NCBI GenBank assembly: GCA_031370785.1
Contig: JANMQY010000124.1
Location: 1 to 38,366, forward strand
Reading direction: 5' to 3'
DNA from: Candidatus Eiseniibacteriota bacterium
GTDB taxonomy: Bacteria; Eisenbacteria; RBG-16-71-46
DNA: 38,366 nt
In this document: positions 9,553 to 29,533 of the stretch, one piece after another
How positions within the stretch are numbered: position 1 is the first letter of the stretch
Layout of the letters: each line of letters opens with the position of its first letter
Program-made: the position numbers and the translations under genes
The notes under the pieces: generated by a model
What the model saw: the letters and a program-made list of their open reading frames with translations, nothing else
Told to the model about the DNA's origin: nothing
The model's database searches: none

Positions 9553-12500
9553 CTAGATCTCCACGTCCCGCCGTTCGAGCCAACGGTAGAGGATGGGGAG
9601 CAGGAAAAGGGTCAGGAGTGTGGAAGTGACGAGCCCGCCGACGACCACCGAAGCCAGCGGGCGCTGGATCTCGGAGCCGGGGCCGCTCGCGATCAACAAC
9701 GGGATGAGGCCCAGCCCTCCGACGAGCGCGGTCATCAACACTGGTCGCAGGCGCAGCTCGCCACCGCGCAGGATGGCGTCTTGAAGCGTCGCTCCCTCCC
9801 GGCGGAGCTGGTTGAAGTACGAAACCATCACCACGCCATTCAGAACTGCCACACCGAAGAGGGCGATGAACCCCACCGATGCGGCGACGCTGAGATTCTG
9901 TCCGGAGATGAAGAGTCCAATCACCCCGCCGATCAGTGCGAACGGGATGTTCAGCACGATCAGCACAGCGTTGCGAAGGGATCCGAAGCTCGTGAACAGC
10001 AACAGGAAGATCAGCAGCACGACCAGCGGTACGACGATCGACAGCCGCGCCATGGCGCGTTGCTGATTCTCGAACTGGCCGCCCCAGGTGACGAAGTACC
10101 CGGTCGGAAACGTGACTTCGCGGTTGACAGCCCTCTGGGCCTCCGCGACGAACGAGCCCATGTCCCTCCCGGTGACGTTGCATTCGATGACGATTCGCCG
10201 TTGGCCACTCTCTCGGCTCACCTGGGCAGGGCCCTCGACGACTCGGATGTGCGCGAGCTGGCTGAGCGGCACACGCTGGCCCTCCTCGGTCGTCACCAAC
10301 AGGTCCTGGAGATGAGTGGGGTCGGAGCGAACCAGTTCCGAGAACTTCACGACGACCGCGAAGCTCCGCTGCCCTTCGCGCAGCACCGTCGCCTCGCTGC
10401 CGCCGATGGCGGTCTCGATGATGGTCTGGATATCGGCCACATTGATCCCATAACGGGCGATGCGCTCGCGGTCGATGTCGACCTCGAGGTACGCCGTGCC
10501 GGCGATTCGTTCGAGATTCACGTCGGCGGCGCCGCGAACCTGTCGTATGACGCGCTCGACCGCTTCGCCCTTCTCGAGCAGTATATCGAGATCGTCACCG
10601 AAGATCTTGATCGCCACCTGCGCCTTGACTCCCGAGACGAGCTCGTCCACACGTAGCTGGATGGGCTGCGAGAAGCTGTAGGACATTCCAGGGATGGTCT
10701 CGAGGCGCGCGCGGATCTTCTCCACGAGTTGCTCGCCCGTTTTCGCGGTTTTCCATTCCGATCGCGGGCGCAGGTTTGCGATCACGTCGCTGACCTCGAG
10801 CCCCTCCGGATCGGCCGCGATGTCGGCACGCCCGGTCTTCGAGACCACCGTTGTGATCTCGGGGAACGAGCGGAGGACGCGCTCGACCTCCAGCTCCATC
10901 TGCCTGGAACTCGAGAGCGAGACGCTCGGCAGCCGGAACGTCTGCAGTCCGATCGCACCCTCGTCGAGCGGGGGCATGAACTCTCGGCCGAGCCGCGTGA
11001 ACAGGAGGCCGCTCACGACGAGCCCGCCCAGAGCGAGAGCCACTGGCACCTGCCAGCGCTCGAGGCACCAGCGCAACGCCGGTAGGTAGAGTCGCTTGGC
11101 ACGCGCGACGAGCCAGGTGTCGCGCTCGGAGAGCCGTCCCTTGAGCAGGAATGTCGACAGCACCGGAACAAGCGTCAATGAGAGCACGAGAGAGCCGGCC
11201 AGCGCCGTCGCGATGGTGAAGGCGAGCGGCGCGAACATCTTGCCCTCGAAGCCCTCGAGCGTGAAGAGCGGCAGGAACACCACGGTGATGATCGAGATGC
11301 CGAACACGATCGGCCGCGCGACCTCCAGAGCGCTCTCCCGCACGGCCTCCACGATATTGCTCTTGCCTTGATCCTCGGCCAGATGTCGGAAGATGTTCTC
11401 GGTCATAACCACCGCGCCATCGACGATCATGCCGATGCCGATCGCGAGCCCTCCGAGGGACATAAGATTGGCGGAGTAACCGAAGGCGTTGAGCAGGATG
11501 AAGGCGACCAGTGCCGAAAGCGGCAGCACAAGCGTCACGATCAGCGCGCTGCGAAGGTTGCCGAGGAACAGGATGAGGACCACCAGCACCAGCACCCCAC
11601 CCTCGAGGAGGGCTTTCGTCACGGTGTGCATCGCGCGATCCACAAGCTCGGTGCGATCGTAGAAGGGTACGACCCGGACGTCCTTCGGAAGCGCCTTGTG
11701 GACGGTGGCGAGCTTCTCTTTGACTGCAGCCACCACGTCCCTCCCGCTCGCGCCTTTCAGCATCAGGACGATGCCCGCCACCGCTTCGCCCTTGCCGTCG
11801 CGAGTGACGAGGCCCTGCCTCGGCTCCGCGCCGATCTTCACGTCGGCGATGTCGCGCACGAAGATCGGCGTGCCGCCGCGGTGCGCGACGACGATCCGGC
11901 CGAGGTCTTCGGCGGACTTCGCGAGCCCGAGGCCACGGACGACGTACTGCTCGCCGCTGTGCTCGATGTATCCGCCGCTCGCATTGGCATTGTTCTCGGC
12001 CAGTGCTTCGAGCACCTGGCGCAGCGTCAGGCGAAAGCTCGTCAGTTTTTCGGGGTGCACGAGGACCTGGTACTGCCTCACCAGCCCACCGAAACTGTTG
12101 ACATCGGTCACGCCCGGTACGCCACGAAGGATCGGCCGCACCACCCAATCCTGAAGGGTGCGCAGTTCCATGGCATCCCGGCGGGGGCTCTCGAGCGTGT
12201 ACTGGTAGATCTCGCCGAGCCCGGTCGAAATGGGCCCCATCTCGACATTCACCCCCGGTGGCAGCTTCTCGCGTGCCTGCTGGAGTCGCTCGAAGACGAG
12301 CTGGCGCGCGAAGTAGGTATTGACGTTGTCCTTGAACACGACAGTGACAACCGAGAGGCCGAGCTTCGATTTCGAGCGGACCTGCGTGAGCCCGGGCAGA
12401 CCGCCCATGCTCACCTCGATCGGATAGGTCACGAGCTGTTCCACCTCGACCGGGGCCATGCCGGAAGCCTCGGCAAGGATCTGAACCTGAACATTCGTGA

Positions 12501-12621
12501 CATCGGGAAACGCATCGATCGGAAGCTGCGTGACGGAGTGGACGCCGAAACCAATCAACGCGATGCAGGCGAGAATGACGAGCAAACGCTGGCGCAGAGC
12601 AAGAGTGACGAGGCGGTCCAT
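9553..12621 (-). CDS. CusA/CzcA family heavy-metal efflux RND permease (module 1)
   Basis: LPIDAFPDVTNVQV, TM4 GGLAIGIGMIVDGAVVMTEN, RLRPVLMTA and GSEIQRPLA; ATG at 12621 with GAGGAG SD. Confidence 0.95.
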   Translation of the reverse strand: MDRLVTLALRQRLLVILACIALIGFGVHSVTQLPIDAFPDVTNVQVQILAEASGMAPVEVEQLVTYPIEVSMGGLPGLTQVRSKSKLGLSVVTVVFKDNVNTYFARQLVFERLQQAREKLPPGVNVEMGPISTGLGEIYQYTLESPRRDAMELRTLQDWVVRPILRGVPGVTDVNSFGGLVRQYQVLVHPEKLTSFRLTLRQVLEALAENNANASGGYIEHSGEQYVVRGLGLAKSAEDLGRIVVAHRGGTPIFVRDIADVKIGAEPRQGLVTRDGKGEAVAGIVLMLKGASGRDVVAAVKEKLATVHKALPKDVRVVPFYDRTELVDRAMHTVTKALLEGGVLVLVVLILFLGNLRSALIVTLVLPLSALVAFILLNAFGYSANLMSLGGLAIGIGMIVDGAVVMTENIFRHLAEDQGKSNIVEAVRESALEVARPIVFGISIITVVFLPLFTLEGFEGKMFAPLAFTIATALAGSLVLSLTLVPVLSTFLLKGRLSERDTWLVARAKRLYLPALRWCLERWQVPVALALGGLVVSGLLFTRLGREFMPPLDEGAIGLQTFRLPSVSLSSSRQMELEVERVLRSFPEITTVVSKTGRADIAADPEGLEVSDVIANLRPRSEWKTAKTGEQLVEKIRARLETIPGMSYSFSQPIQLRVDELVSGVKAQVAIKIFGDDLDILLEKGEAVERVIRQVRGAADVNLERIAGTAYLEVDIDRERIARYGINVADIQTIIETAIGGSEATVLREGQRSFAVVVKFSELVRSDPTHLQDLLVTTEEGQRVPLSQLAHIRVVEGPAQVSRESGQRRIVIECNVTGRDMGSFVAEAQRAVNREVTFPTGYFVTWGGQFENQQRAMARLSIVVPLVVLLIFLLLFTSFGSLRNAVLIVLNIPFALIGGVIGLFISGQNLSVAASVGFIALFGVAVLNGVVMVSYFNQLRREGATLQDAILRGGELRLRPVLMTALVGGLGLIPLLIASGPGSEIQRPLASVVVGGLVTSTLLTLFLLPILYRWLERRDVEI

Positions 12622-12625: not shown

Positions 12626-13738
12626 TCACTCCTCGCCCAACTGGCTCTTGGATGCCTGCGACTTGAGCAGGAACCCGCCGCGGGTCGCGACGCGCTCTCC
12701 CGGGCGGATGCCGCTGAGAATCTCGGCGCGATTCCCGCCCAGCGACCTGACTTCAACCGGCCGGACCACGAACGTGGAGTCCGTGAGGGCGACGTACATG
12801 ACCTTGAGATCACCCTGCGACTGGACGGCGGCTTCATCGACCACAAGGGCGCTCCGCGTCGAGCCGGTGGCGATGCGGGCCGAAACGAACATGCCGGGCC
12901 TGAGTTTGAGGCCAGGATTCATCAGTTCGAGGCGGACATCGAGCGTGCGAGTCGCCTCCTTGATCGAGCCTTCGAGACTGACGACGCGGCCGCGGAAGAC
13001 GAGGTTCGGGAATGCCGTGGTGCTGAGCGCGGCGGCCTGTCCAACGTGCAGCCGGCCGAGGTCACGCTCGTAGGCATCCACCACCGCCCAGACCTCACTG
13101 AGGTCGACGATGCCGAACAGGTCAGTTCCTGCCGCAACCTGACGACCAACACTGGCCTCGACCTCGGTCACGACTCCCGAGATCGGGCTGCGCATTGGCA
13201 GGGTGGGAATCGCCTCGTGGGTGCGATCGAGTCGATCGAGGTCCTCGGCCCCCGCGCCCAGAAGCTCCAGTCGCTGGCGGGCGGAGCGCGCGACGCTCTG
13301 GAACGCGGTGACATCGCCACCGACCGCTTCGGTGCGCGCGTGGGCGAGCAGATAATCGCCCTCCGCCGCCGAGAACTCCGGGCTGTAGAGCGTGGCCAGC
13401 ACCTGGTTGCGGGTGACGTGGTCGCCGATCACGGGTTTGACAGCCTGGATCGTGCCCGACACGCGCGTCGAGACGTGAGCGATATTGAGCGGCTTGGGCT
13501 GGATCTGCCCGCTGACGACGACGGTGTCCGCGAGTGGCTGCTTGATCAAGGTCTCCACGCGGACCTCACCGCTGGACAGGCTCGCGGCGGGGACGTGGAT
13601 GATCGAGTCGGGCGCCGCGGCCGCCGCGGGAGTTTCCTGCTTGGCTGCCCCGCAACTGACAACGGCAAGCTGGCCGAGGAACAGGACGAACAGCAGTAGA
13701 CGACGTGTCCTAGAGTAAGTTCGCATGTCGGTGTTCAC
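12626..13738 (-). CDS. RND efflux periplasmic adaptor (CzcB-like MFP), probable lipoprotein
   Basis: Lipobox-like VVSC; LYSPE, SPISGVV, DLSEVW, TRT..VR and LRPGMF motifs; lies between the OMF and RND genes. Confidence 0.92.
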   Translation of the reverse strand: MNTDMRTYSRTRRLLLFVLFLGQLAVVSCGAAKQETPAAAAAPDSIIHVPAASLSSGEVRVETLIKQPLADTVVVSGQIQPKPLNIAHVSTRVSGTIQAVKPVIGDHVTRNQVLATLYSPEFSAAEGDYLLAHARTEAVGGDVTAFQSVARSARQRLELLGAGAEDLDRLDRTHEAIPTLPMRSPISGVVTEVEASVGRQVAAGTDLFGIVDLSEVWAVVDAYERDLGRLHVGQAAALSTTAFPNLVFRGRVVSLEGSIKEATRTLDVRLELMNPGLKLRPGMFVSARIATGSTRSALVVDEAAVQSQGDLKVMYVALTDSTFVVRPVEVRSLGGNRAEILSGIRPGERVATRGGFLLKSQASKSQLGEE

Positions 13739-14997
13739 TCCGCGACCGCGAGGTCGGTCAGGGCAAGTTCGTAGTTGAGCAGCGCCCGGATGTGTTCGAG
13801 TTCGATCGAGCGGAAGGTCCGCAGGGTCTCGAACAGCTCGAGCCCGGTGATCTGACCGGCCTGGTAGTTCTGGATGGCGGTCCGGAACGCATCAGAGGCA
13901 TCGCTGAGCAGCACGCGGTCGAACTGTTGTACCTGTCGCTCCGCGCTGCGGGCGGATTCGAAGGCGTTGCGCAACGCCAAGTCCACCTCCCGTTCCACCA
14001 CCTCGAGTCGCGCTTGCGCGCTTCCCCGCGTAGCGCGCGCCTCGCTGATCCGCGCTCGCCGATCGGTCCACGGCGCGAACGGCAGGGAGAAAGAGATCTC
14101 GCCGCCCATGCCCGAGCGGTCGGAGCCCGGCACTCGGTCCAGCCCCGCGCTGATGGAGGTGAATGGCAGCATTCCGTTTCGGGCGAGCGCCACCTGTGCC
14201 CCGCCGCGCTCGACCTCGAGCCGGGTCGCTCGCAGGCGAGGACGGGACGCCATGGCCTGCCGTAAGACCGACTCGAGGCTGTCGGAGAGCGGCATGTAGG
14301 TCAGGGAATCCGCGGCCTCCAAAGGCTCGGCGGGGGCGCGAGCCATGAGAGCCTTGAGCGTGTTCCGGTCCTCTCGAAATGCACGCTCGGCCTCGACGGC
14401 ATCGTTTTCGATCCGGATGCGTTCCGACCGGGCACGCAACACATCAAGGTACCGGGCACCGCCGGTGCGAAGCCGCGTGCTGACCATCTGCTCCAGATCT
14501 GCGGCGGTCTTGCGCAGGGTCTCGAGCGTGCGGATGCTGATGGCATCGGCCTGCAGGCGTCGGTAGGCACGGGTGACGTCGCCACGTAGCTTGAGCCCGA
14601 AGGATTCGCGATTCGCCTCGGCGATGGCGACGTCGATGCGGGCAACCGCTTTCGCGCGCCCCCGCCCTCCAGGCGCGCCCAGATCCTGAGACAGGCGAAC
14701 GGCGGCGTCATGTTCCTCGCCGCTCACCGGCGTGCCGAGCTTGCCGGCCTGGTAGCTCAGGCTCGGGGCCTCGAAGGCGCCCGCCTGGCGGAGTCTGGCC
14801 CTTGCGGCCTCGAGCTCTCCGTCGGCTATGCGGAGTCCGGGGTTGCTCTTGAGCGCAAGGGCAACGCACGAATCAAGGGTCAGCGATTGTGCGTGTGCAG
14901 GGCCCGGCGCGATGACCAGCCACGTCGAGACTCCGAACGCGGCGATCGCGAGCGACGAACGCCGCAACCGACAGATGGCATGGAACGACTGATTCAA
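13735..14997 (-). CDS. TolC/CzcC family outer-membrane efflux protein (module 1)
   Basis: AHA signal cleavage site, two OEP repeats (ALKSNP.L, ASRPRL, YQAGQI..LE). Start chosen as TTG 14997 because a GGAGGA SD precedes it; the ORF track gives 15039. Confidence 0.88.
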   Translation of the reverse strand: MNQSFHAICRLRRSSLAIAAFGVSTWLVIAPGPAHAQSLTLDSCVALALKSNPGLRIADGELEAARARLRQAGAFEAPSLSYQAGKLGTPVSGEEHDAAVRLSQDLGAPGGRGRAKAVARIDVAIAEANRESFGLKLRGDVTRAYRRLQADAISIRTLETLRKTAADLEQMVSTRLRTGGARYLDVLRARSERIRIENDAVEAERAFREDRNTLKALMARAPAEPLEAADSLTYMPLSDSLESVLRQAMASRPRLRATRLEVERGGAQVALARNGMLPFTSISAGLDRVPGSDRSGMGGEISFSLPFAPWTDRRARISEARATRGSAQARLEVVEREVDLALRNAFESARSAERQVQQFDRVLLSDASDAFRTAIQNYQAGQITGLELFETLRTFRSIELEHIRALLNYELALTDLAVAE

Positions 14998-15006
14998 GGG
15001 AACACT

Positions 15007-15087
15007 CCTCCGCTGGGCGAGTAGAAGGCTCGGCCTCAATACGAACGACCGCGAGGACCTGTCGGTCTCGCGGCCGCACAGCGGAGG
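15007..15087 (-). promoter_or_regulatory. SD-sequestering stem between leader 1 and OMF gene
   Basis: mRNA CCUCCGCUG(u)GCG (15087-15075) is complementary to CGC(c)CAGCGGAGG (15019-15007), which contains most of the GGAGGA SD. Confidence 0.75.
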
Positions 15088-15090
15088 GGA

Positions 15091-15513
15091 TCAGTTGCGG
15101 AGGATGGTCTTCCTGGAAGGGGCGAACGACGAGCGCGAGTCCCGTTCGGGCGCCAGAGGCGCCTCGTTCAGGGCCGCCGGCGACTGGATCGCAGCAACGA
15201 CCGTGGGGATTGGAGGCGCCATCTCCAGGGCAGTACTCAGGGCGTAGCCACGACCACGCAGGCGGAGCGCGCTCCCAGCAATGGGGATGTCGACGCATTC
15301 GCCACAGCAATCGGACCCGATCTGAGACGCAGCAGGCTCAACGGCGTCGTTCACGGTGGGCGCGTACTGGACGCAAACATTCTGCCCGGCCTCAATGGTC
15401 AGGTGTCCGTTGGGGGCGAGACAAAGCACGGCCTGGCTCGCCCGAACCGGGAGTCCGGCGAGCGTCATGAGCGCCAGGTAACAGCAGATCGTCAGCCGAA
15501 CAGGAGAGCGCAT
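15091..15513 (-). CDS. Small exported Cys-rich leader protein 1 (140 aa, ends TILRN)
   Basis: MRSPVRLTICCYLALMTLAGLPVRA signal-like start; VLCLAPNGH, DCCGECVD; Pro/Ala-rich tail. It fills the gap between two operons and has its own promoter-like boxes. Confidence 0.8.
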   Translation of the reverse strand: MRSPVRLTICCYLALMTLAGLPVRASQAVLCLAPNGHLTIEAGQNVCVQYAPTVNDAVEPAASQIGSDCCGECVDIPIAGSALRLRGRGYALSTALEMAPPIPTVVAAIQSPAALNEAPLAPERDSRSSFAPSRKTILRN

Positions 15514-15521
15514 GCGGTGAA

Positions 15522-15551
15522 AAGCTAGTGGGCCACGCCTTGTGCTGTCAA
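15522..15551 (-). promoter_or_regulatory. Sigma70-like promoter of leader 1 (probably leaderless mRNA)
   Basis: TTGACA (15551-15546), 18 nt, TAGCTT (15527-15522), 8 nt, then ATG; no SD. Confidence 0.65.
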
Positions 15552-15617
15552 ACACGTGGACTGACGCCCGCGCCGGCCGATTCCGTCCCCGCAAGGTGAT
15601 TCGAAATGGGTCTCGCA

Positions 15618-18600
15618 TCAAACCGGGCCAGCCCCACGCTCTGGGCTCCTTGTCCTGTGGGTCACAGCATAGAGAGTCGGCAACACGATGAGCGTGAGAA
15701 TCGTCGAGGAAAGAATGCCGCCAATGACGACCGTTGCGAGCGGCCGCTGCACTTCGGCGCCGGCCCCTGTAGCGAGTGCCATCGGAACGAACCCGAGCGC
15801 AGCGACCAGCGCCGTCATGAGAATGGGCCTCAGCCGTCGAGTGCATCCATCCACAACTGCGAGGTCGACCTCCAGTCCGTCCGCGACTCGCTGCCTTACG
15901 AACGACAGCAGCATGACTCCATTGAGGACCGCGACGCCGGAGAGCGCGATGAAGCCGATCCCGGCCGTGATCGAAAACGGCATCTGGCGCATGGCCAACG
16001 CGAGCACACCTCCGGTGAGCGCCAGGGGAACTCCGCTGAAGACAACCAGCGCGTCGCGTAGTGATCCAAATGCGAGGACGAGGAGCGCCAGAATGAGCAC
16101 CAGTGCCATCGGCACCACGATCGCGAGTCGGTTGCGCGCCGTCACGAGGTTCTCGAACTGCCCGCCCCACCCGAGCCAGTAGCCAGCGGGAAGCGGAACC
16201 GATGTATCAATCGTGTGCCGGGTTTCGGCCACGAAGGAGGCGAGGTCCCGTCCGCGGACATTCGCCTGGACCACGACTCGCCGCTTGCCATTTTCGCGAC
16301 TCACCTGATTGGGTCCCTCCTCGAGTCGGATATGCGCCACGGCGTTCAAGGGCACGAACTCGACGCGCTCGTCACGAGAGGCGCCCGCAGCATCGTGTCG
16401 CCCGGGGATTGGTATCGGAAGCATCTCGAGCGCGGCGACATCATGCCTCGCCGGCTCAGGCAGGCGAACGATGATCGGGAAGCGACGATCCCCGGTAAAA
16501 AGCTCTCCCGCCTGTGTACCACTGAGAGCGGTGCGGACCACGTCCTGAACGTCCGCGAGGTTGATTCCGAAGCGTGCCACGGCCTTCCGGTCGATCTCGA
16601 TGGCGAGCGTCGGCAACCCGATCACCTGTTCGACTTTCACGTCGGTGGCCCCCCGCACGGAGCGAACGACACGGGCGATGCGATTCGCAGTCGTGAGCAT
16701 CGTGTCGAGATCGTCGCCGAATACCTTGATGGCGACATCGCTTCGCACCCCGGCGATGAGCTCGTTGAAGCGCATCTGGATCGGTTGCGTGAACTCGTAG
16801 GCGTTCCCCGGGAGCGACGAGAGCCTCCGCTCCATCTCCTCGACTACCTCCCCCTTTGGTTTCTTCGGGTCCGGCCACTGCCGTCGCGGCTTCAGCATCA
16901 CGAAGGTGTCCCCCGTGCTGATCGGCATCGGGTCATTGGCGACTTCGGCCGTGCCCAACCGCGAGAACACCTCACGCACCTCCGGCATGCTTGCGATCGT
17001 GGCCTCGACCTTGTGCTGCATCGCCACGGCTTGATCGACGCTGATTCCGGGCATGCGCACAGGCTGGACCAGGATGTCCTGCTCATCGAGAGTAGGAACG
17101 AACTCGCCGCCAAGACGCGTGGCGAGAGCGATGCACAGCACCAGAAGCGCAGCAGTTCCGGCAAGGATCGACTTGCGGTGGGCAAGTGCCCAGCGCAGCA
17201 CGGGCAAGTAGATATGCCGGACCCAACGCACCACGTGGCTTTCCGCCTCCGCAACGCGCCCGCGAACGATCAGCGCCATCAGCGCCGGCACGAAGGTGAA
17301 GGCGAGCACCAACGCTCCCGCGAGCGCAAAGAGCACGACCTCCGCGAGTGGGCGGAACATTTTGCCCTCAACGCCGGTGAGAGTCAGAATCGGTAGATAG
17401 ACGATCATGATGATTGCGACCCCAAAGAGGGTCGGGCGGGCGACTTCACGGGCGCCGGCATAGCTTTCGTGGAGCCGCTCGGGAAGGGCGAGAACGCGAC
17501 CGAGTTCGTGTTGGCGAAGGCTCAACCGTCGCAGGATGTTCTCGACCATCACCACAGCCCCATCGACAATGATCCCGAAATCAATCGCTCCGAGGCTGAG
17601 AAGATTGGCGCTGACTCGACCCTCAACCATTCCGCTCACTGCCATCAGCATCGAGAGCGGGATGACGAGCGCCACAATCAGCGCGGCGACCCAATTCCCG
17701 AGCAGCACGAAAAGCACCGCGATCACCAGAAGGGCGCCCTCGAGGAGATTCTTACGCACGGTTTCCAGCGTTGCGTCGACGAGATGAGTGCGGTCGTAAA
17801 CCGGCCGCGCCACGACGCCTGGCGGCAACGAACGATTGATCTCCTTCAGTCGCTCTCCGACACTTCTCGCCACCGCCCGGCTGTTCTCGCCGAACAGCAT
17901 GATGGCGGTGCCGATGACGGTCTCCCTCCCGCGGCTGGTAGCCGCGCCGGTGCGAAGCTCCTGTCCCAGCACGACCCTGGCAACATCGCTGACACGGATC
18001 GGCACGCCGCCACGCGTCGCAACCACGACCTGCGCGATGTCGTCGGGAGAGGACAGTCGCCCGTCGGTGTGAACCAGGTACTGCTCGCCCTTGTGCGGCA
18101 GGAATCCAGCTCCGACCGCCTGATTGTTGTGCTCGAGAGAAAGCAGGATATCGTTGAGCGTGAGGCCATAGGCGCGTAGCCGTGCCGGATCGGGTTGAAC
18201 GTCGTATTGCTTGCGGAATCCGCCGATCGTATTGACCTCGGTGACGCCCGGAGTGTTGCGAAGCTGCGGCTTGATGATCCAGTCCTGGATCTCTCGAAGG
18301 TCGGTAGCCGTATAGACAGAACCGTCGGGCTTGCGCGCGTCGGGTGCGGCCTCCACTTCCCACAGGAATATGTCGCCGAGCCCGGTCGCGATCGGACCCA
18401 TCATCGGCTCGGCGATCCCGCGCGGCAGGTTTTCCCGCGCCTCCTGCAGCCGCTCGTTCACGAGCTGTCGGGCGAAGTAGATATTCGTCCCGTCGCGAAA
18501 CACGACGGTGACCTGAGAGAGTCCGTAGCGGGAGAGTGACCGAGCCTCCACCATCCCGGGGAGGCCTGCCATCGCTGTCTCGATGGGAAAGGTGACCTGT

Positions 18601-18824
18601 CGCTCGATGTCGAGCGGAGGCAACCCCTCGACGACAGTGTTGATCTGCACCTGAACGTTGGTGATGTCCGGCACGGCATCGATCGGCAGCCGTCTGAGAT
18701 TGAACAACCCGTAGCTCGCGAGGGCGGCAGTGATGACGACGACCGACCACCGATGAACGATCGAGAAACGAAGCACGCGCTCGAGGAGCGTCTGCGCTTC
18801 CGGCAGGCTGGTATCAGTCTTCAT
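15618..18824 (-). CDS. czcA: CzcA-type divalent-metal efflux RND permease (module 2)
   Basis: LPIDAVPDITNVQVQIN, canonical TM4 GAIDFGIIVDGAVVMVEN, FTQPIQMRFNELIAGVRSD and GAEVQRPLATVV. Confidence 0.95.
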   Translation of the reverse strand: MKTDTSLPEAQTLLERVLRFSIVHRWSVVVITAALASYGLFNLRRLPIDAVPDITNVQVQINTVVEGLPPLDIERQVTFPIETAMAGLPGMVEARSLSRYGLSQVTVVFRDGTNIYFARQLVNERLQEARENLPRGIAEPMMGPIATGLGDIFLWEVEAAPDARKPDGSVYTATDLREIQDWIIKPQLRNTPGVTEVNTIGGFRKQYDVQPDPARLRAYGLTLNDILLSLEHNNQAVGAGFLPHKGEQYLVHTDGRLSSPDDIAQVVVATRGGVPIRVSDVARVVLGQELRTGAATSRGRETVIGTAIMLFGENSRAVARSVGERLKEINRSLPPGVVARPVYDRTHLVDATLETVRKNLLEGALLVIAVLFVLLGNWVAALIVALVIPLSMLMAVSGMVEGRVSANLLSLGAIDFGIIVDGAVVMVENILRRLSLRQHELGRVLALPERLHESYAGAREVARPTLFGVAIIMIVYLPILTLTGVEGKMFRPLAEVVLFALAGALVLAFTFVPALMALIVRGRVAEAESHVVRWVRHIYLPVLRWALAHRKSILAGTAALLVLCIALATRLGGEFVPTLDEQDILVQPVRMPGISVDQAVAMQHKVEATIASMPEVREVFSRLGTAEVANDPMPISTGDTFVMLKPRRQWPDPKKPKGEVVEEMERRLSSLPGNAYEFTQPIQMRFNELIAGVRSDVAIKVFGDDLDTMLTTANRIARVVRSVRGATDVKVEQVIGLPTLAIEIDRKAVARFGINLADVQDVVRTALSGTQAGELFTGDRRFPIIVRLPEPARHDVAALEMLPIPIPGRHDAAGASRDERVEFVPLNAVAHIRLEEGPNQVSRENGKRRVVVQANVRGRDLASFVAETRHTIDTSVPLPAGYWLGWGGQFENLVTARNRLAIVVPMALVLILALLVLAFGSLRDALVVFSGVPLALTGGVLALAMRQMPFSITAGIGFIALSGVAVLNGVMLLSFVRQRVADGLEVDLAVVDGCTRRLRPILMTALVAALGFVPMALATGAGAEVQRPLATVVIGGILSSTILTLIVLPTLYAVTHRTRSPERGAGPV

Positions 18825-19773
18825 GGCCGCCCGCTTCCTTCTCGAGTTCGGCCTTCAGCCAGAACGCGTTCCTGGCCACGATGCGCGCGCCGCGTTCGAG
18901 TCCCGAGACGATCTCGGTTGTCGTTCCGTCGCTTCGACCAACCGTCACCGGCTGTACCTCGAATCCCGATGAATCGGCGCGGAACACCGCCGCTCCCGTG
19001 CCCATCCGGACGATCGCATCCTCGGGCACGGCGACCGGCACGGTGACGCGTTCGACCACGGCAACCGCTGTCACGAGCCTCCCCGGCTGCCAGCGGCCAT
19101 CGCGATTTGGAAGCACGACGCGCGCATAGGTGCTTCGCGTGTCCACGTCGAGGAGCGGCCCCACGTAGCTGATCGTGCCGGTCGCCGCGATCGAAGGCCC
19201 ACCCTCGGTTCGCACGTGGACCACCTGGCCGCGGCGAATCCGACCCAGATGCTGCACATAGATGGGAAAGTCGAGCCACACGCTCGAGAGATCCGCCACC
19301 GTGTAGAGCACGGATTCGTGATCCACGACCGCGCCCGGGTTGGCGGGACGACCAACGATCGTCCCTGCCATCGGGGCGGTCACGACGTATTCACTGAGAC
19401 TTTCGTTGCTGTAGATCACGCCCAGCGGTTGTCCGCGCGTCACCCAACTTCCAAGCTCTGCCTGCATTGAAACCACGCGACCGGCATAGGTCGGGCGCAC
19501 ATCGACGCTGCGTTCCGCGTTGAGCTTGATCTCGCCGGGAAGCTCGAACGCGACCTCGATTGATTGCGCCCCTGCCCTGCCGAGAACGATTCCGGCGCTG
19601 CGAATCGCATCGTCGGAAAGCTCGACCACGGTCCCGCCATGCGGTCCGGTCGTGTGAGCCTCCTCGTGGTGTTCCTCGGCGGCAGGGTTCGGCTTCCCAC
19701 AGCCAGCGAGCGCCAGGGCGCCTGCGAGAAGCAGGCTGACCGGCACATGTAATCCCGGGATGCGTCGATTCAT
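18814..19773 (-). CDS. czcB: CzcB-like RND periplasmic adaptor, lipoprotein with His-rich N-terminus
   Basis: LAGC lipobox, EEHHEEAH..PHGG, ADLSSVW, TR...ARVVLPN..GRW.PG; ATG at 19773 overlaps the OMF stop and has a GGAGGAG SD. Confidence 0.88.
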   Translation of the reverse strand: MNRRIPGLHVPVSLLLAGALALAGCGKPNPAAEEHHEEAHTTGPHGGTVVELSDDAIRSAGIVLGRAGAQSIEVAFELPGEIKLNAERSVDVRPTYAGRVVSMQAELGSWVTRGQPLGVIYSNESLSEYVVTAPMAGTIVGRPANPGAVVDHESVLYTVADLSSVWLDFPIYVQHLGRIRRGQVVHVRTEGGPSIAATGTISYVGPLLDVDTRSTYARVVLPNRDGRWQPGRLVTAVAVVERVTVPVAVPEDAIVRMGTGAAVFRADSSGFEVQPVTVGRSDGTTTEIVSGLERGARIVARNAFWLKAELEKEAGGHED

Positions 19774-21050
19774 CGCTCCTCCTTCGGGGCGGGCAGCCCG
19801 GTTCCTGCGAGTAGTGCGAGGCGCATGCGTGCGCGCCACAGATCGGCTTGCGCGTCGATGAGAGCAAATTCGGTTTGCAGGAGGTTGCTCTGTTCGGCGA
19901 CGAGATCGAGGTAGCTCGACCGGCCGGCGCGATATCCGCGGAGCAACTCGTCCACCACCTGTTCGCGCGCGGGACGCACGCGAAGTCGCAGGGTGTCGAA
20001 GACCGCGGTGGCGGCTTGAAGCCGCTCGATGGCGGTCATGCGCGCGACGTCCAGCCTCTGCTCGGTTGCCCGCCGCTCTGCGACGGAGGCTTCCAGCTCA
20101 TGACGTGCTCCGGCGATGTCACCGGCCCCGCGATTCCAGAGTGGAAGCGGTACTTCCACACCTGCTACGAACCCGGTGCCGGGAATCTCTTCCAGCCGGC
20201 GCGCCCCGGCCGACAGAACGACGTCCGGAATCCGGGCTGCTGTGGCGACATGAACGCGGGCCATCGCCAGGGCTTCATTCGCGGAGGCACGAGCCAGCTC
20301 GGGATGAGGTTGGGGCTGCGATCGCCACAAGGCCGTATCGTCAGGCGCGGGCGCGACCAGGGAATCGAAGTCGGCCTCGGACGCGCCCCAGGTGAGGGCG
20401 AGTTCCTGGCGAGCAACATCGAGTTCCGACCCGGTGCGCCGCCGCTCCACGGCCTGCGCCAACGCCTGGCTCTGCGCTCGAAGGATCTCCAGCCGTGGCG
20501 ATGCGCCCGCTCGATACCGCTCCGTGGCCGCACGGATGGCTTGATCGGTGAGGTGTTCGCCTTCCCGAAGCTGTCGGAGACGAGTTTGGAGTGCCCAGGC
20601 AGCGATGAAACGATCGGCGGCCACGGCCAGCCCTTCGCTCCCGAGGACGTCGGTCTCGGCAGCCGCCAGCCTGTACTCGGCATCAGCGGTGGCGATGCGC
20701 GCCCGGCGGTCGCCTCCGAGTTCGAACGCCTGGCCGATCGCCGCCGTGGCTTCACGATGGCTCCCGCCCAACTGCCCGCCGAAGTTCTCTTCAGTGGCAC
20801 TCAGGGTCGGGTTCGGGCGGCGACCCGCATCCCCGATTCGCGCGCGCGCCGCCTCGGCGCGCAGGCCGGCGGGTCGAAGTCGCGGCTCGTACCGCCTCGC
20901 GAGCGCGAGGGCACGCTGAAGGGTCAGAGGACCCGTTACGACGGCAATGGTGTCCGGTGGTGTCGGCGCGGCGCCCGCCGTGGCGTCGAACGACGCAACA
21001 GCCACGACCAGCATCGCGCAGCGGCAGCCGGCTCTCGCGGATGAGAGCAC
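19770..21050 (-). CDS. czcC: CzcC/TolC family outer-membrane efflux protein (module 2)
   Basis: PNPTL...EN, Q.FELGG.R.ARI, RIPD, VPLPLWNR and YRAGRSSYLD; GTG start with AAGGAG SD 8 nt upstream. Confidence 0.9.
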   Translation of the reverse strand: MLSSARAGCRCAMLVVAVASFDATAGAAPTPPDTIAVVTGPLTLQRALALARRYEPRLRPAGLRAEAARARIGDAGRRPNPTLSATEENFGGQLGGSHREATAAIGQAFELGGDRRARIATADAEYRLAAAETDVLGSEGLAVAADRFIAAWALQTRLRQLREGEHLTDQAIRAATERYRAGASPRLEILRAQSQALAQAVERRRTGSELDVARQELALTWGASEADFDSLVAPAPDDTALWRSQPQPHPELARASANEALAMARVHVATAARIPDVVLSAGARRLEEIPGTGFVAGVEVPLPLWNRGAGDIAGARHELEASVAERRATEQRLDVARMTAIERLQAATAVFDTLRLRVRPAREQVVDELLRGYRAGRSSYLDLVAEQSNLLQTEFALIDAQADLWRARMRLALLAGTGLPAPKEER

Positions 21051-21059
21051 GCAATGATC

Positions 21060-21131
21060 TCCTTCGAGCCAGGGATGTCCGACCTTGGGCGCGCAAACGC
21101 GCGCCGGTTCAGATTCGGGCAGCTCGAAGGA
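21060..21131 (-). promoter_or_regulatory. SD-sequestering stem between leader 2 and czcC
   Basis: mRNA UCCUUCGAGC directly after the leader stop (21131-21122) is the perfect complement of GCUCGAAGGA (21069-21060), which covers the SD. Confidence 0.8.
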
Positions 21132-21512
21132 TCAACAACGAAGGATTGGCAGGCGCGTTCCGGGGGGTTCGCCGACCCAGAAGACCTGGGTTTCTGCGAC
21201 GAGCGGGGCAAGAACGACCAGGCACGATGCGGTGAACTGTGAGGCCGACACCGGCGCATGAGCCGCAAATGTGCGGGCACTTCTGACGGCGCTGAATGCT
21301 TCGTCCCGGCACGGCCCGCAGTCCGGTGTGCCGGGCGTGCCAATCGCAGCCGCGGCGGTGCCGACACCGACCCATGCGCACGCGCAGTGACCCAACTCCG
21401 GCCTCTCGCTCCCATCCGAAGAGATACAGATGGAGCCGCTCACCATCGGCGGCAAGACGAGGATCAGTTGGAGCAGCACCAGGACTCGGACGCGCCAGCT
21501 CGGAACGCTCAT
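21132..21512 (-). CDS. Small exported Cys-rich leader protein 2 (126 aa, ends PILRC)
   Basis: MSVPSWRVRVLVLLQLILVLPPMVSG signal-like start; ICISSDG..E.GHCAC and DCGPCRD align with the leader 1 motifs. Confidence 0.8.
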   Translation of the reverse strand: MSVPSWRVRVLVLLQLILVLPPMVSGSICISSDGSERPELGHCACAWVGVGTAAAAIGTPGTPDCGPCRDEAFSAVRSARTFAAHAPVSASQFTASCLVVLAPLVAETQVFWVGEPPGTRLPILRC

Positions 21513-21663
21513 GGGCCGATAACTCTCGTGGAAGGGCCGGCAGCGGTCAAGCAGTAGGTCGGCCTCACTCCGCCATTTTGCAGAAGCAGAAAGCCTTGTG
21601 CCTTGCCAAACTGGGCTGGCGAAGGACATGAAGGCCGTGATGGCGCTCCGGACCGACGATTTT

Positions 21664-21720
21664 CACAGCATCACTCCAGAGGTGGGCAACTGTCCCCGGG
21701 GACAATTGCCACAGCATCAC
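21664..21720. repeat. 26-bp near-perfect palindrome flanked by 11-bp direct repeats
   Basis: GGCAACTGTCCCC|GGGGACAATTGCC (21685-21710, one mismatched pair); CACAGCATCAC at 21664-21674 and 21710-21720. Confidence 0.8.
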
Positions 21721-22456: not shown

Positions 22457-22521
22457 ATCGTAAGTCGTCCAGTGGCGCGGCCCTGGGGTACGAATCGGCG
22501 GCGCATCCAGGCCCCTCGTAC

Positions 22522-22878
22522 TCACTCGATCGTGACCTGTCCCTTCATCATGTCCATGCCGCACGCGTAGCTCAACGTGCCCGTATGCCCCGCGGGCACT
22601 TCGATGCGGACCGGCTGTCCGAGCGGCAGATCACGGCGCACGCCGAGGTCGGCGATCACGACTTCGGTCGCGCAGGTCTGGTCGGTCTTGCGCGTGAACA
22701 CGAGCGTCGTCGGCTGGCCGGAGCGCAGTTTGGTCTGGGCCGGCTCAAAGCCCTGGTCGGTGACGTCGATATGGATCTCTCCAGCCTTTGCCACGGCGCC
22801 ACCCTTCTGGCAGGCGACGAGTGTGACGAGTGCGGCAACCGCGACGAGTGAAACCAGGATCCAATGCACTGCTTTCAT
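22522..22878 (-). CDS. Cupredoxin-domain lipoprotein (CupA-like copper binding)
   Basis: LVAC lipobox; GFEP, TCATEV and YACGMDMMKG motifs; ATGA overlap with the cusA stop. Confidence 0.88.
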   Translation of the reverse strand: MKAVHWILVSLVAVAALVTLVACQKGGAVAKAGEIHIDVTDQGFEPAQTKLRSGQPTTLVFTRKTDQTCATEVVIADLGVRRDLPLGQPVRIEVPAGHTGTLSYACGMDMMKGQVTIE

Positions 22879-25800
22879 GACAGACCTCCGGTGAGTGGGG
22901 CTGGGTGAACAGGGGGTGGAGTCGAGGCGGGTTCTGCGTCCGCGACCGCGGCGCGCTCGGGAAGGCGGCGCCCCTTCCACCACGCGAAGATCGCGGGGTA
23001 GACGAGCAGTTCGAGCGCGAACGAGGTGATCACGCCGCCCACCATGGGCGCAGCGATGCGCTTCATGACGTCGGCGCCAGCGCCGTGCCCCCACAGGATC
23101 GGGAGCAGGCCGAACAGGATGGCGCACACCGTCATCATCTTGGGCCGGATGCGATGCGCGGCGCCCTCGACGATGGCCTCGGTGAGCCCGGCACGGTCGC
23201 GGATGCGGCCCGCCGCGTGATGGTCGCGATACGCGAGATTGAGGTAGAGCAGCATCACCGTGCCGGTCTCGGCGTCGAGCCCGGCCAGCGCGATCATCCC
23301 GACCCACACCGCGACGCTCAGGTTGTAGTGCAGCAACCACAGCAGCCAGATCGCGCCGATCAGCGAAAACGGCACGGCCAGCATCACGATGCCGGCCTCG
23401 GGCACCGAGCGCAGGTTGAAATAGAGCAGCACGAACACGAGCAGCAACGTGATCGGGATCACCCAAGTGAGCCGCGCCTGCGCGCGCTCGAGGTACTGGA
23501 ACTGGCCCGACCACTCGATTCGATAACCGGTGGGCAGCGTGACGCGCTCTCCAACCACGCGCTGCGCGTCGCGCACGTAGCTCCCGAGCGGCCGGTCGGC
23601 CACGTCCACCGAGACCAGGCCGACGAGCTGTCCGTCCTCCTCCTGAATCATGGAGGGTCCATTGCGGAAGCGCATCGTGGCAAGGGTCGCGAGCGGAACC
23701 TGCGCGCCGGATGAAGTCGGCACCAGCACGCGCCCGAGCGCCTCGGGATTGTCACGCAGTTCGCGTGCGTAGCGCACGGCCACGCTGTAGCGCTCGCGGC
23801 CCTCGACGGTCTGGGTGACGGCGCTGCCGCCGATCGCGGTCTCGATCACGTCCTCGATGTCGCCGACGGTGAGCCCGTAGCGCGCGGCAGCGTCGCGACG
23901 GATGTCGAAGTCCAGGAACCGCCCGCCGGTGACACGCTCGGCGAACGCGCTGCGTGTGCCGGGCACGTCGCGCACGGCATGCTCGACGGCGACGCCGATG
24001 CGTTCGATCTCGGCAAGGTCGGGGCCGAACACCTTGACGCCGACCGCGCTCCGCACGCCGGTCGCAAGCATTTCATTGCGCGTCTGGATCGGCATCCACC
24101 AGATGTTGGGCATGCCGGGGAAGCGCACCTTGCGATCCAACTCGGCGACCAGGCGCTCCCAGGTCATGCCCGCTCGCCACTCGCGTTCGGGCTTGAGCGT
24201 GATCACGGTCTCGACCATCGAGAGTGGGGCGGGATCGGTCGCGGTGCGCGCACGCCCGATCTTGCCGAACACCGTCGCCACCTCCGGCACGCTCTTGAGC
24301 TGACGGTCCATCTGCTGCAACACCGATCCAGCCTCGGTTTCGGAGATCCCGGGTGGCGCGGTCGGCATGTAGAGCAACGTGCCCTCGTTCAAGGGCGGCA
24401 TGAACTCGCTGCCGAGCGTGAGGAAGATGGGCACCGTGGAGAGCAGCAGCAGCGCGGCCCCGATCACCACGGCCCGGCGCCGGCGCACCACCCAGCGCAC
24501 CACCGGCGCGTAACCGCGCATCAGCGCGCGCGAGATCGGATGCTGATGCTCGCCGCGGATGCGCCCGCGCACGAACCACATGGTCAGCGCCGGCGTCAGC
24601 GTGATCGCGAGCAGCGCCGCGAACGCCATCGACCAGGTCTTGGTGAACGCGAGCGGCTTGAACATCCTTCCTTCGGCCCCCTGCAGCGTGAAGATGGGCA
24701 GGAACGACACGGTGATGACGAGCAGCGCGAAGAAGATCGGATGTCCGACCTCCTGCAGCCCTTCGATCACCGCCGTCGAGCGCGGGCCTTGCCGGCCGCC
24801 CTCCTCCCAGCGCTCGAGCTTCTTGTGCACGTTCTCGACCATGATGATCGAGGCATCGACCATCGCGCCGATCGCCACCGCGATGCCGCCCAGCGACATG
24901 ATGTTCGCGGTCAGGCCCTGCATCGCCATCGGGATGAACGCCAGCACCACCGCCACCGGGAGCGTCAGGATCGGGATCAGGGCGCTGCGGAAGTGGAAAA
25001 GGAACGCCACGATGATGAGGCTGACGATCAGCATCTCTTCGAGCAGCTCACGCTGGAGCGTTCTCGCGGCGCGTTGGATCAGGTCCGAGCGGTCGTAGGT
25101 GACGACGAGCTGGACTCCGGGCGGGAACGAGCCGCGCACCTCGGCCAGCCGCCGCTTGATGCCCTCGATCACACGCAGCGCGTTCTGCTTCTGGCGCATG
25201 ATGACGATGCCGCCCACTACCTCCCCGCGGCCGTTCAACTCGGCGAGCCCGCGGCGCGGCTCGGGGCCGAGATGCACCGCGGCCACGTCGCGCAACAGGA
25301 CGGGCACACCGCCGGGTCCGAGCTTGAGCGGGATCTGCTCGACGTCGGCCACGCTCTTGATGTATCCGCGGCCGCGCACGTAGTGCTCGTGCTCGGCGAT
25401 CTCGACCACGCCGCCGCCCACGTCGCCGTTCGAGCGGCGGATGGCGTCGGCGACGTCGCGGATCGAGAGCCCAAAGCTCTGGAGCTTCGCGGGCTCGAGG
25501 TCGGCCTGGTATTGCTTGACGAACCCGCCGATCGAGGCCACCTCGGCCACGCCGTCCACGCCCTGCAACCAGTAGCGCAGGGTCCAGTCCTGGAACGAGC
25601 GGAGCTGCTGCAGATCGAGTCGGCCCGTGGTGTCGATCAGCGCGTACTCGAACACCCAGCCGACGCTGGTCGCATCGGGACCGATCTGGGGCGTGACGCC
25701 CTCGGGCAGCCGGTTGCGCAGCGACGAGAGGTACTCGATCACGCGCGAGCGCGCCCAGTAGAGATCCACGTCGTCCTTGAACACCACGTACACAAACGAG

Positions 25801-26069
25801 TCGCCGATCATGGACAGCCCGCGCACGTAGCGCACACCGGGCGCGGCGCGCAGCGCGGTCACGATCGGATAGGTGATCTGGTCCTCGACCAGGTCGGGGC
25901 TGCGCCCCATCCACTCGGTCGAGATCACGACCTGGGTGTCGGACAGGTCGGGCACGGCGTCGAGCGGCGTGCGCATCAGCGCGGCGACACCGAACCCGGT
26001 GGCGATCAGCACCGCGGCCACGGTGAACGCGGGCCGCCTGGCGCAGGCGGCGATCAGGCGCTCGATCAT
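22875..26069 (-). CDS. cusA: CusA/SilA-type Cu(I)/Ag(I) efflux RND permease (module 3)
   Basis: PLDAVPDLSDTQV, YWARSRV.EYL, TM4 GGIAVAIGAMVDASIIMVEN; Met-triad contexts LLYMPT, APLSMVET, PIQTRNEML; RIRPKMMT. Confidence 0.95.
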   Translation of the reverse strand: MIERLIAACARRPAFTVAAVLIATGFGVAALMRTPLDAVPDLSDTQVVISTEWMGRSPDLVEDQITYPIVTALRAAPGVRYVRGLSMIGDSFVYVVFKDDVDLYWARSRVIEYLSSLRNRLPEGVTPQIGPDATSVGWVFEYALIDTTGRLDLQQLRSFQDWTLRYWLQGVDGVAEVASIGGFVKQYQADLEPAKLQSFGLSIRDVADAIRRSNGDVGGGVVEIAEHEHYVRGRGYIKSVADVEQIPLKLGPGGVPVLLRDVAAVHLGPEPRRGLAELNGRGEVVGGIVIMRQKQNALRVIEGIKRRLAEVRGSFPPGVQLVVTYDRSDLIQRAARTLQRELLEEMLIVSLIIVAFLFHFRSALIPILTLPVAVVLAFIPMAMQGLTANIMSLGGIAVAIGAMVDASIIMVENVHKKLERWEEGGRQGPRSTAVIEGLQEVGHPIFFALLVITVSFLPIFTLQGAEGRMFKPLAFTKTWSMAFAALLAITLTPALTMWFVRGRIRGEHQHPISRALMRGYAPVVRWVVRRRRAVVIGAALLLLSTVPIFLTLGSEFMPPLNEGTLLYMPTAPPGISETEAGSVLQQMDRQLKSVPEVATVFGKIGRARTATDPAPLSMVETVITLKPEREWRAGMTWERLVAELDRKVRFPGMPNIWWMPIQTRNEMLATGVRSAVGVKVFGPDLAEIERIGVAVEHAVRDVPGTRSAFAERVTGGRFLDFDIRRDAAARYGLTVGDIEDVIETAIGGSAVTQTVEGRERYSVAVRYARELRDNPEALGRVLVPTSSGAQVPLATLATMRFRNGPSMIQEEDGQLVGLVSVDVADRPLGSYVRDAQRVVGERVTLPTGYRIEWSGQFQYLERAQARLTWVIPITLLLVFVLLYFNLRSVPEAGIVMLAVPFSLIGAIWLLWLLHYNLSVAVWVGMIALAGLDAETGTVMLLYLNLAYRDHHAAGRIRDRAGLTEAIVEGAAHRIRPKMMTVCAILFGLLPILWGHGAGADVMKRIAAPMVGGVITSFALELLVYPAIFAWWKGRRLPERAAVADAEPASTPPPVHPAPLTGGLS

Positions 26070-28992: not shown

Positions 28993-29089
28993 CTTCCTCC
29001 GGGTTGAGCCGTACCCGCGCATCGGGCAGGACACAGACGAATTCACGCCCCGGCGCATGGCGCGCTCGAAGGCGTGGAACCGAAGGAAG
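28993..29089 (-). promoter_or_regulatory. SD-sequestering stem between leader 3 and OMF gene
   Basis: mRNA CUUCCUUCGG (29089-29080) pairs with CCGGAGGAAG (29002-28993): 10 bp including one G-U, covering the whole SD. Confidence 0.75.
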
Positions 29090-29092: not shown

Positions 29093-29533
29093 CTAGAGTC
29101 TGAGGATGGTGGTGCCGATCGCGGCGAGCGCGAGCGGTGGACTGGAAGTAGCCGCGACGGGCGTCGCGCAGAGAACTTCGGAGGTAGGACTGACCGCGAG
29201 AGCCGGCAGAACGACGAGCGCGGTCATGTGACGCGCATCGTCTCGCCCGGCATCAACCGAAGCGGATTGCGGAAGCGCAGCGGTGGGCGCTGTGGCGCTC
29301 ACGCGACAGCAAGGGCGCGCGGCAGGAGTAGCGGCAGGTCGCGTCGCCCGGTCGCAACCCTGGCAAGCGACCCGCCCGTGCACGGCATCACGCCTGCAAT
29401 CGATGCGCGGGGCGCCGGCGGCCGGTCCGCTCTGCACCACGGCCCACAACGAAAGCAGCACGCCGGTTGCGCGAAGGACGCGCGCCGGGCGCTTGCGACC
29501 GAGCCAGCTCTGGATCGAAGTGTGGAAGTTCAT
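29093..29533 (-). CDS. Small exported Cys-rich leader protein 3 (146 aa, ends TILRL)
   Basis: Basic N-terminus plus hydrophobic segment ending PAAGA; C...CQGC...CC; Pro/Ala-rich tail SSPPLALAAIGTTILRL; first gene of the cus operon. Confidence 0.78.
   Translation of the reverse strand: MNFHTSIQSWLGRKRPARVLRATGVLLSLWAVVQSGPAAGAPRIDCRRDAVHGRVACQGCDRATRPAATPAARPCCRVSATAPTAALPQSASVDAGRDDARHMTALVVLPALAVSPTSEVLCATPVAATSSPPLALAAIGTTILRL

Follow-up and report, generated by a model that had tools for sequence, protein, structure and literature searches.

Within the 38,366-nucleotide stretch analysed here (the window), Candidatus Eiseniibacteriota contig JANMQY010000124.1 (assembly GCA_031370785.1) contains three consecutive operons on the minus strand, each encoding a TolC-type outer-membrane factor, an adaptor and a pump of the resistance-nodulation-division (RND) class. 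Each operon is headed by a cysteine-rich open reading frame (ORF) of 126–146 amino acids; these are referred to as leaders 1, 2 and 3 (L1, L2 and L3) and are followed on the same strand by the next gene after gaps of 93, 81 and 104 nt, respectively (Table 1). All three pumps exceed the TIGR00914 cut-off, and three marker methionine residues are present in pump 3 and absent from pumps 1 and 2. The same residues draw a clean line between two clades among the 140-odd pumps of the class, which, taking the methionine triad to be the mark of CusA, we read as CzcA-type pumps for divalent metals and CusA-type pumps for Cu/Ag. The tolC1 and tolC2 genes most likely start at the TTG and GTG codons listed in Table 1, behind strong Shine-Dalgarno (SD) sequences, and starts of the same type with strong SDs are found in many relatives of both clades; the longest-ORF start of tolC1 at 15039 is probably wrong. 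The database gene call for L1 (P0004) begins 15 residues late.

The three leaders share a plan in which a basic-hydrophobic start is followed by a cysteine cluster, a Pro/Ala/Ser/Thr linker and an ILRx end. L1 carries the motif C31-x3-NG-x4-E41-x-G, followed by C47 and CC-x2-C-x-D at residues 69–75, and ends in ILRN, whilst L2 has C29-x3-DG-x4-E39-x-G, a CxC and a CxxCxD at residues 65–70 and ends in ILRC. L3 has C46-x10-CxxC with a CC pair at residues 75–76 and ends in ILRL. Behind the basic start the hydrophobic 13-residue segment averages 2.14 in L1, 2.78 in L2 and 1.64 in L3, and the putative export signals were judged from these values. The structure model of L1 is of low confidence (mean predicted local distance difference test score, pLDDT, 58.9; predicted template modelling score, pTM, 0.25), with a helix over residues 3–20, strands at 28–32 and 38–42 and no structure beyond residue 45.

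An earlier note, made from the DNA letters alone, had held that L1 and L2 are diverged homologues with a common Cys scaffold and that L3 uses a different one, and profile comparison bears out both statements. Pairwise BLASTP of L1 against L2 is not above chance (E=0.099), and all pairs among L1–L3 are non-significant. A profile of eight L1 relatives matches L2 and two of its orthologues at 86.5%, and when 19 L1-type sequences from outside the L2 clade are used the match rises to 95.8% (E=8e-9) over the signal and Cys core. Between the L3 and L1 families the only match is in the last nine columns, that is in the tail (26%), and the L3 family gives no match to the L2 family (2.3%). The sequences behind these profiles were picked by hand from ORFs that precede relatives of the window's three TolC proteins. 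The family of L1 is termed scaffold A (C-x5-H-x3-E...C...CxxCxD) and that of L3 scaffold B (C...CxxC...CC). L2 is a divergent member of scaffold A without the His that is near-invariant in the rest of the family; its core scores 5.5 bits, and of its four orthologues three score 16–20 and the fourth 1.3.

Table 1. Leaders, RNA arms and operon genes in the window
Feature	Position	Strand	Remarks
Leader 1 (L1)	15091..15513	-	140 aa, ATG 15513; signal-like N-terminus, scaffold A Cys/His core, Pro/Ala/Ser linker, ILRN-TGA
L1 signal-peptide-like segment, aa 1–28	15430..15513	-	Hydrophobic segment and modelled helix; cleavage site placed by eye
L1 scaffold A core	15289..15429	-	C31, H37, E41 on predicted beta-hairpin; C47; CxxCxD 70–75; invariant columns
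L1 tail codons able to pair with tolC1 SD region (first arm)	15097..15103	-	RNAalifold consensus
L1 post-stop arm (second arm), pairs with tolC1 SD region	15079..15089	-	z=-3.4
tolC1 SD arm	15005..15015	-	Likely start TTG 14997
tolC/czcC-type outer-membrane factor 1	13735..14997	-	PF02321
czcB-type adaptor 1	12626..13738	-	PF16576
CzcA-type RND pump 1	9553..12618	-	TIGR00914; without Met triad
Leader 2 (L2)	21132..21512	-	126 aa; divergent scaffold A; ILRC-TGA
L2 stop codon and next bases, pairing with tolC2 SD region	21121..21134	-	z=-2.6; opening-cost model
tolC2 SD arm	21055..21070	-	Likely start GTG 21050
tolC/czcC-type outer-membrane factor 2	19770..21050	-	PF02321
czcB-type adaptor 2	18814..19773	-	Start approximate
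CzcA-type RND pump 2	15618..18824	-	TIGR00914; without Met triad
Leader 3 (L3)	29093..29533	-	146 aa; scaffold B; ILRL-TAG; beyond the range of the earlier note (15091–21512)
L3 post-stop arm, pairs with cusC SD region	29080..29089	-	z=-1.9
cusC SD arm	28993..29002	-	Start ATG 28988
cusC-type outer-membrane factor 3	27612..28988	-	PF02321
cusB-type adaptor with N-terminal YtkA-like domain	26080..27615	-	PF16576, PF13115; start approximate
CusA-type RND pump 3	22875..26069	-	TIGR00914; Met triad present

The leaders are, on sequence grounds, real and conserved genes under purifying selection, a property that had been set beforehand as a test. The ratio of nonsynonymous to synonymous substitution rates (dN/dS) is 0.06–0.69 and lies below one in all 27 leader pairs of at least 50% identity, a choice of alike pairs that biases the ratio downward. 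By leader, the values are 0.29–0.49 for L1 (five relatives), 0.41–0.50 for L2 (three) and 0.59 and 0.75 for L3 (two, distant). Over the last 12 codons the proportion of nonsynonymous differences (pN) is smaller than that of synonymous ones (pS) in 26 of the 27 pairs. No Pfam or NCBIfam family was found for L1–L3 or for 48 relatives; the best-scoring candidate, DUF6660, reached 17.8 bits against a cut-off of 27 for a leader of the HPP type described below, and was rejected.

The suggestion that the Cys motif tracks the pump class was followed in a survey centred on pumps rather than on leaders, which covers 150 of 251 TIGR00914 matches listed, in 151 genomes. From these, 136 pump loci were taken (three others lie in the window and 11 have too little upstream DNA) and four regions were added via TolC; an upstream operon gene was present at 140 loci, including the three of the window. 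A leader-picking rule blind to the tail gave a leader at 111 of the 140 loci and none at 29, several of which lie at contig ends and several of which have a visible leader below the threshold. With one false pick (L148) removed, the pump could be classified at 107 of the remaining 110 loci.

Label-free clustering of the leader cores returned five multi-member clusters, none of which mixes CusA and CzcA types. Scaffold A stands before 38 CzcA-type and no CusA-type pumps (34 by profile score and four, including L2, by cluster), and scaffolds C (23/0) and D (6/0) show the same partition. Scaffold B (0/22) and scaffold E (0/7) stand only before CusA-type pumps, and 11 leaders have no scaffold assignment. 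The test set in advance, that motif and pump class might be uncorrelated, thus went the other way. The tracking has to be understood more narrowly than was first suggested, in that each class has several scaffolds, three named for CzcA-type and two for CusA-type pumps, and the link is partly one of co-descent because the pump class splits only once on the pump tree. On the same tree no fewer than 11 scaffold changes fall within classes; scaffolds move among distant subclades inside a class and at none of the 107 loci across the CusA/CzcA boundary. In a leader-centred check of 29 further scaffold A loci, the 15 readable pumps are all closest to the CzcA type, six loci have TolC without a pump in view, six are ended by the contig and two have the leader directly before a cation diffusion facilitator (CDF) exporter of the ZitB-like kind. 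This switch of partner, still to a divalent-metal exporter, is the best sign of a functional link. The two CDF-heading leaders are L263 and L275; the opposite strand of G138:C111 carries another leader, oriented head to head. One pump subclade (L107, L122, L133, L134 and L187) has a lipoprotein-like small ORF with repeated Trp-Cys-x-x-His motifs in the interval between leader and czcB.

The ILRx tail, once taken to be constant, is so in the three leaders of the window and alternates with others elsewhere. The 110 leaders comprise 70 with L[RL]x ends, 25 with HPP/HVPK-like ends, 11 with RAPP/RGPP and four with other ends, and the tail type changes 11 times on the pump tree. Near-identical CusA pumps are preceded by RAPP leaders at some loci and by L[RL]x leaders at others, and scaffold B leaders occur with both tails (20 with L[RL]x, two with RAPP). 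A tail-free profile, built from signal and Cys core only, collects 74 distinct scaffold A leaders across the assembled loci, 65 of which end in L[RL]x; RAPP is absent from all 74, as it is from L1–L3. The consensus tail is [TV][IV]L[RL]x-stop, the last residue being C, I, N or L, and position -2 is R or L in 70 of the 74 and never Pro, in proteins whose linkers have Pro as 35% of their R/L/P/H/Q residues. The stop codon is TGA in 71 of the 74 and TAG in none, against a genome background of 29% TAG. Among 2498 crudely called genes of this genome, only 32 end in L[RL]x. Stop codon and last residue are associated, with Leu before TAG in 17 of 22 cases and Cys, Ile or Asn before TGA in 43 of 44, which may reflect descent or a release-factor dependence. 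One leader before a CzcA-type pump, L083 (G043:C24), is Cys-free and His-rich and ends in LLI-stop.

The distance between the Cys cluster and the tail is fixed. The last CxxC lies 58–70 residues from the end in 60 of 61 scaffold A leaders and the last CC lies 66–73 residues from it in 13 of 13 scaffold B leaders, although the sequence of the linker is poorly conserved. The ribosomal exit tunnel holds about 30–40 residues and the translocon 20–30, and the Cys cluster would therefore lie just beyond the membrane when the ribosome is at the stop codon.

Scaffold A leaders are numerous. A scaffold A profile matched 3587 clusters (50% identity) at E <=0.001 among 1.84 billion representatives; of 150 matches read, 137 end in L[RL]x and none in RAPP, with a profile that includes the tail, and ten clusters that were looked up are unnamed or called 'hypothetical protein'. 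Outside the phylum, carriers are found in one Nitrospiraceae genome and in Ca. Sumerlaeia. Among 301 genomes of a second phylum there were 12 matches, and the nine best end in such a tail (eight L[RL]I, one LHI), eight of them with a TolC match behind. A locus search with a single protein returned one locus, and a word search with L1 returned one relative only. The ESM Atlas gives Planctomycetota and Myxococcota clusters as leads; close to L1 and L3 (0.93–0.94) it also places a cluster in which 23% of the members are DUF2946 proteins, likewise a lead only. No publication on the L[RL]x tail or on these scaffolds was among the top-ranked literature matches, a search whose coverage leaves out most subscription papers.

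At all three window loci the SD of the downstream gene is paired, in computed folds, with bases at and after the leader's stop; the pairing is weakest for L3, where 10 of 200 shuffles are equally stable. A sliding window over 66 L[RL]x loci shows that pairing with the ribosome-binding site (RBS) peaks at the stop, at -16.2 kcal/mol compared with about -9.5 kcal/mol elsewhere, and the profile of 250 ordinary gene pairs of the same genome is flat. Pairing of -13 kcal/mol or stronger occurs at 53 of 66 leader loci and 54 of 250 control pairs, the controls coming from crude gene calls and SDs being ranked with an anti-SD nonamer. Of 77 L[RL]x leaders, 56 have their best pairing window between -6 and +6 of the stop; none of 14 RAPP leaders does, and theirs lies 9–33 nt upstream over C-rich Pro codons (in part a trivial consequence of composition), the arm being shifted by about 18 nt relative to the L[RL]x leaders. 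In an alignment of 14 loci, whose rows are related, pairing in the post-stop helix reaches 88.2%, and six of the rows show a C-G/U-A swap. What is new here is this computed pairing, in which the RBS of tolC would be held by an arm that starts at the leader's stop codon. The idea of a modular sensor with a common effector tail is partly supported, with putative sensor scaffolds that partition by class and a tail that alternates with others and whose codons also serve as an RNA arm.

The modelled cost of opening the SD depends on where a ribosome is placed. Over 65 leader loci the cost is 10.9 kcal/mol when the RNA is free; a footprint placed 30 nt upstream leaves it at 11.1, one at the stop brings it to 6.9, and controls cost 6.6 and 6.5 kcal/mol. 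A fall of at least 2 kcal/mol with the footprint at the stop is found in 45 of 65 leaders and 17 of 250 controls. The switch therefore appears to be built for a ribosome at the leader's very end. For L1 the cost is 13.9 kcal/mol free, 14.8 and 15.1 when one arm is masked and 9.4 with a footprint over both arms, and for L2 it falls from 11.3 to 3–4 kcal/mol with a footprint at the stop. A stall at an upstream Pro-Pro (PP) pair was considered as the switch and rejected, since a footprint there lowered the cost by at least 2 kcal/mol in just seven of 65 loci.

Several described systems resemble these leaders. CutF of Rhodobacter capsulatus is exported, and a copper-induced stall at its PPP motif melts an SD hairpin (PMC9973294; bioRxiv 10.1101/2025.02.05.636593). 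In the survey of CutF-like proteins, genes for outer-membrane efflux proteins (OEP; CusC/CzcC/SilC) are the commonest neighbours and clusters differ in Cys/His motifs (PMC9973294, Ozturk et al. 2023); it was restricted to proteins that have PP among their 15 C-terminal residues (PMC9973294). Sensor leaders before metal pumps are thus already known. Like CutF, L1–L3 are shorter than 150 aa, with a putative Sec-type signal, a Cys motif and first place in the operon; they also have a computed hairpin hiding the next gene's SD and a same-strand neighbour within 1000 nt. Unlike CutF with its PPP, the leaders here keep L[RL]x-stop, and a modelled ribosome at the upstream prolines leaves their SD closed. 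L1 falls outside the PP filter of the survey, L2 and L3 pass it, and some members of the scaffold A family may already be in the survey list.

CruR (Bp2923) of Bordetella pertussis, a DUF2946 (PF11162) protein, has a RAPP motif with a CxxC 45 residues upstream and acts through Rho termination (PMC9426467, Roy et al. 2022). Its signal peptide is dispensable and copper represses an importer (PMC9426467), and arrest has been demonstrated (PMC12992588). As with CruR, the leaders are upstream ORFs in which a CxxC and a C-terminal motif stand a conserved distance apart; unlike CruR, the distance here is 58–73 residues, RAPP is absent and exporters lie downstream. PF11162 matches neither L1–L3 nor 48 leaders at E up to 1, and none of 206 genomes of the phylum has a match over the cut-off, so that, as far as such models reach, the leaders are not DUF2946 members. 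CzcI of Cupriavidus metallidurans, described as a periplasmic quencher of CzcCBA (PMC10127602; PMC9973294), is, like the leaders here with their putative export, a small exported protein encoded directly upstream of czcCBA-type genes. No CzcI match appeared in the Pfam/NCBIfam scans of the leaders, scans in which the presence of a CzcI model is unconfirmed and to which no direct alignment was added. Arrest with a stop codon in the A site is described for NSP-stop, NAP-stop and DGMK-stop leaders (2024, PMC10987492). These share with the leaders here an N-terminal export signal (putative here), a motif at the very end and a stop-codon stall (presumed here), and differ in their motifs, in having sec genes downstream and in lacking a metal site.

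We consider it on balance probable that these are metal-sensing leaders of the CutF/CruR kind whose arrest is proline-free and occurs at termination, stalling and metal binding being the interpretative part. The ORFs would encode leader proteins that act in cis and govern how strongly the following pump operon is translated. In the folding models the RBS of tolC or cusC is hidden by pairing with the bases just past the leader's stop, with a backup arm in the last codons, and is opened only by a ribosome footprint at the last codons or the stop. During co-translational export the fixed-length linker would set the Cys cluster beyond the membrane whilst the tail is at the peptidyl-transferase centre. 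By analogy with CutF, metal bound by the cysteines would prolong a pause imposed by [TV][IV]L[RL][CINL]-stop at termination, and the RBS would stay open and the pump be made. Gene context suggests that scaffold A (L1, L2) may respond to divalent Zn, Co or Cd and scaffold B (L3) to Cu(I) or Ag(I). A wider claim, which we hold tentatively and place slightly short of probable, is that [TV][IV]L[RL]x-stop is an undescribed proline-free termination arrest motif present in thousands of leaders of several phyla, that it is exchangeable with RAPP, the mRNA switch moving along with it, and that scaffold A is a ribosome-tethered periplasmic Zn/Co/Cd sensor.

The main rival is plain translational coupling, which we regard as unlikely, and in which each terminating ribosome would briefly open the hairpin, the tail would be mostly a by-product of a second anti-SD arm and there would be no stall. 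Metal control would then lie elsewhere, in transcription or in a pause at the Pro-rich stretch that reduces the number of ribosomes reaching the stop. Codon choice agrees with such an RNA constraint and so weighs against arrest: Leu at -3 is encoded by CTY in 63 of 70 cases, compared with 55% elsewhere in the same genes, and codons at -4 and -1 end in pyrimidines, the last codon in 70 of 70. RNAalifold moreover favours the tail-codon arm (92.9% paired) over the post-stop arm, and the post-stop arm itself would be equally required by plain coupling. A Pro-rich pause could act where PP occurs in the last 15 residues, which is the case in 27 of 74 scaffold A leaders and in L2 and L3, but not in L1. 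Coupling nevertheless gives no reason for the exclusion of Pro from position -2, where CCN would pair equally well and R and L are encoded by nearly all their codons, AGR and TTR included. Nor does it explain why the motif holds to one frame and one distance to the stop, or why the Cys-to-end distance is fixed. In four of 14 rows, moreover, one pair of the tail-codon helix is lost where the post-stop helix compensates. The nearly free choice of codons for R and L at -2, the absence of Pro there, the single frame and the 26 of 27 pairs with pN below pS lead us to see in the tail a peptide motif that overlies an RNA arm, a pattern that by itself does not separate arrest from plain coupling.

Further results weigh against a metal-controlled arrest at the leader's end. 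After masking, the SD of L1 still costs 9.4 kcal/mol to open, and the fall for L3 is only about 2 kcal/mol. In the second phylum the post-stop arm is the best partner in four of nine leaders only, some starts being perhaps mispicked. The cognate arm is the best partner in six of 91 cases and often no better than the arms of other loci, a weak ranking that arises because the SDs all look alike and that is not counted in favour of the model. The last residue of the tail is chemically mixed, the relatives in the various counts are not independent, and the two RNA runs give no evidence on expression, holding only a relative about 92% alike on one flat contig that may be DNA. Export, stalling, metal binding, the direction of control and metal specificity are all inferred.

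A role in trans, as a periplasmic metal-binding pump accessory resembling CzcI, seems improbable as the whole explanation. Apolar C-termini serve as periplasmic protease signals, and the tail would on this account be a signal for a protease or a PDZ domain. Such a role fits the signal peptide, the Cys/His ligands and a gene position like that of czcI (PMC10127602), but gives no account of the fixed Cys-to-end spacing, of the SD-hiding arm tied to the stop, of the shift of that arm in RAPP leaders or of the preference for TGA over TAG in scaffold A leaders, and the L1 model has no structure beyond residue 45. An additional role in trans besides the leader function is possible. Transcription control as in CruR, where a ribosome at the leader's end would block Rho-dependent termination before tolC, fits the C-rich, G-poor last 60 nt of the leaders (skew 0.35 compared with 0.12 further up), the absence of any intrinsic terminator found behind them and the action of CruR (PMC9426467), but is hardly to be expected given a skew that may stem from Pro/Thr/Ser/Leu codons and a conserved SD pairing that points to translation, although a Rho effect could act as polarity on top of the proposed arrest.

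A metal-resistance island spans 5103–21600 of the window, with a P-II-like gene (9203–9559) and a P1B ATPase (6960–9179) behind pump 1, followed by a CDF exporter (6080–6973) and an RcnA/NicO-like gene (5103–5936). The GC content is 0.63–0.66 across most of the island and 0.69–0.73 in its flanks. The contig of a relative matches 21615–30500 and continues unlike the window below 21615, and the two CzcA operons may therefore have been inserted next to the CusA operon. In 21717–22878 a cupredoxin-like gene closes the CusA operon and is followed by an AHSA1/SRPBCC gene and an ArsR-type regulator. Further along, 35483–36791 carries a winged-helix gene, a 190-aa ORF without a Pfam match and a RibD-C/DHFR-like gene fragment. 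A fourth leader, of the L1 type (L253, G000:C56 7–429), heads a second copy of operon 1, with a TolC that is 76% identical. No plasmid match was found, no Rfam family in 12000–31000 and no sigma-70 promoter.

Nascent-chain metal sensing has, in the papers considered here, been tested for copper only and with proline-based stalls. The surveys selected on PP or RAPP, and the scaffold A family would be partly missed by such filters. With this family it could be tested cleanly whether ligand-controlled arrest at a stop codon is possible with a non-proline tail, and also whether exchanging Cys scaffolds exchanges the metal sensed. The window has both scaffold types on one tail and is therefore a ready set for domain-swap reporters, and the leaders may prove a source of modular metal biosensors.

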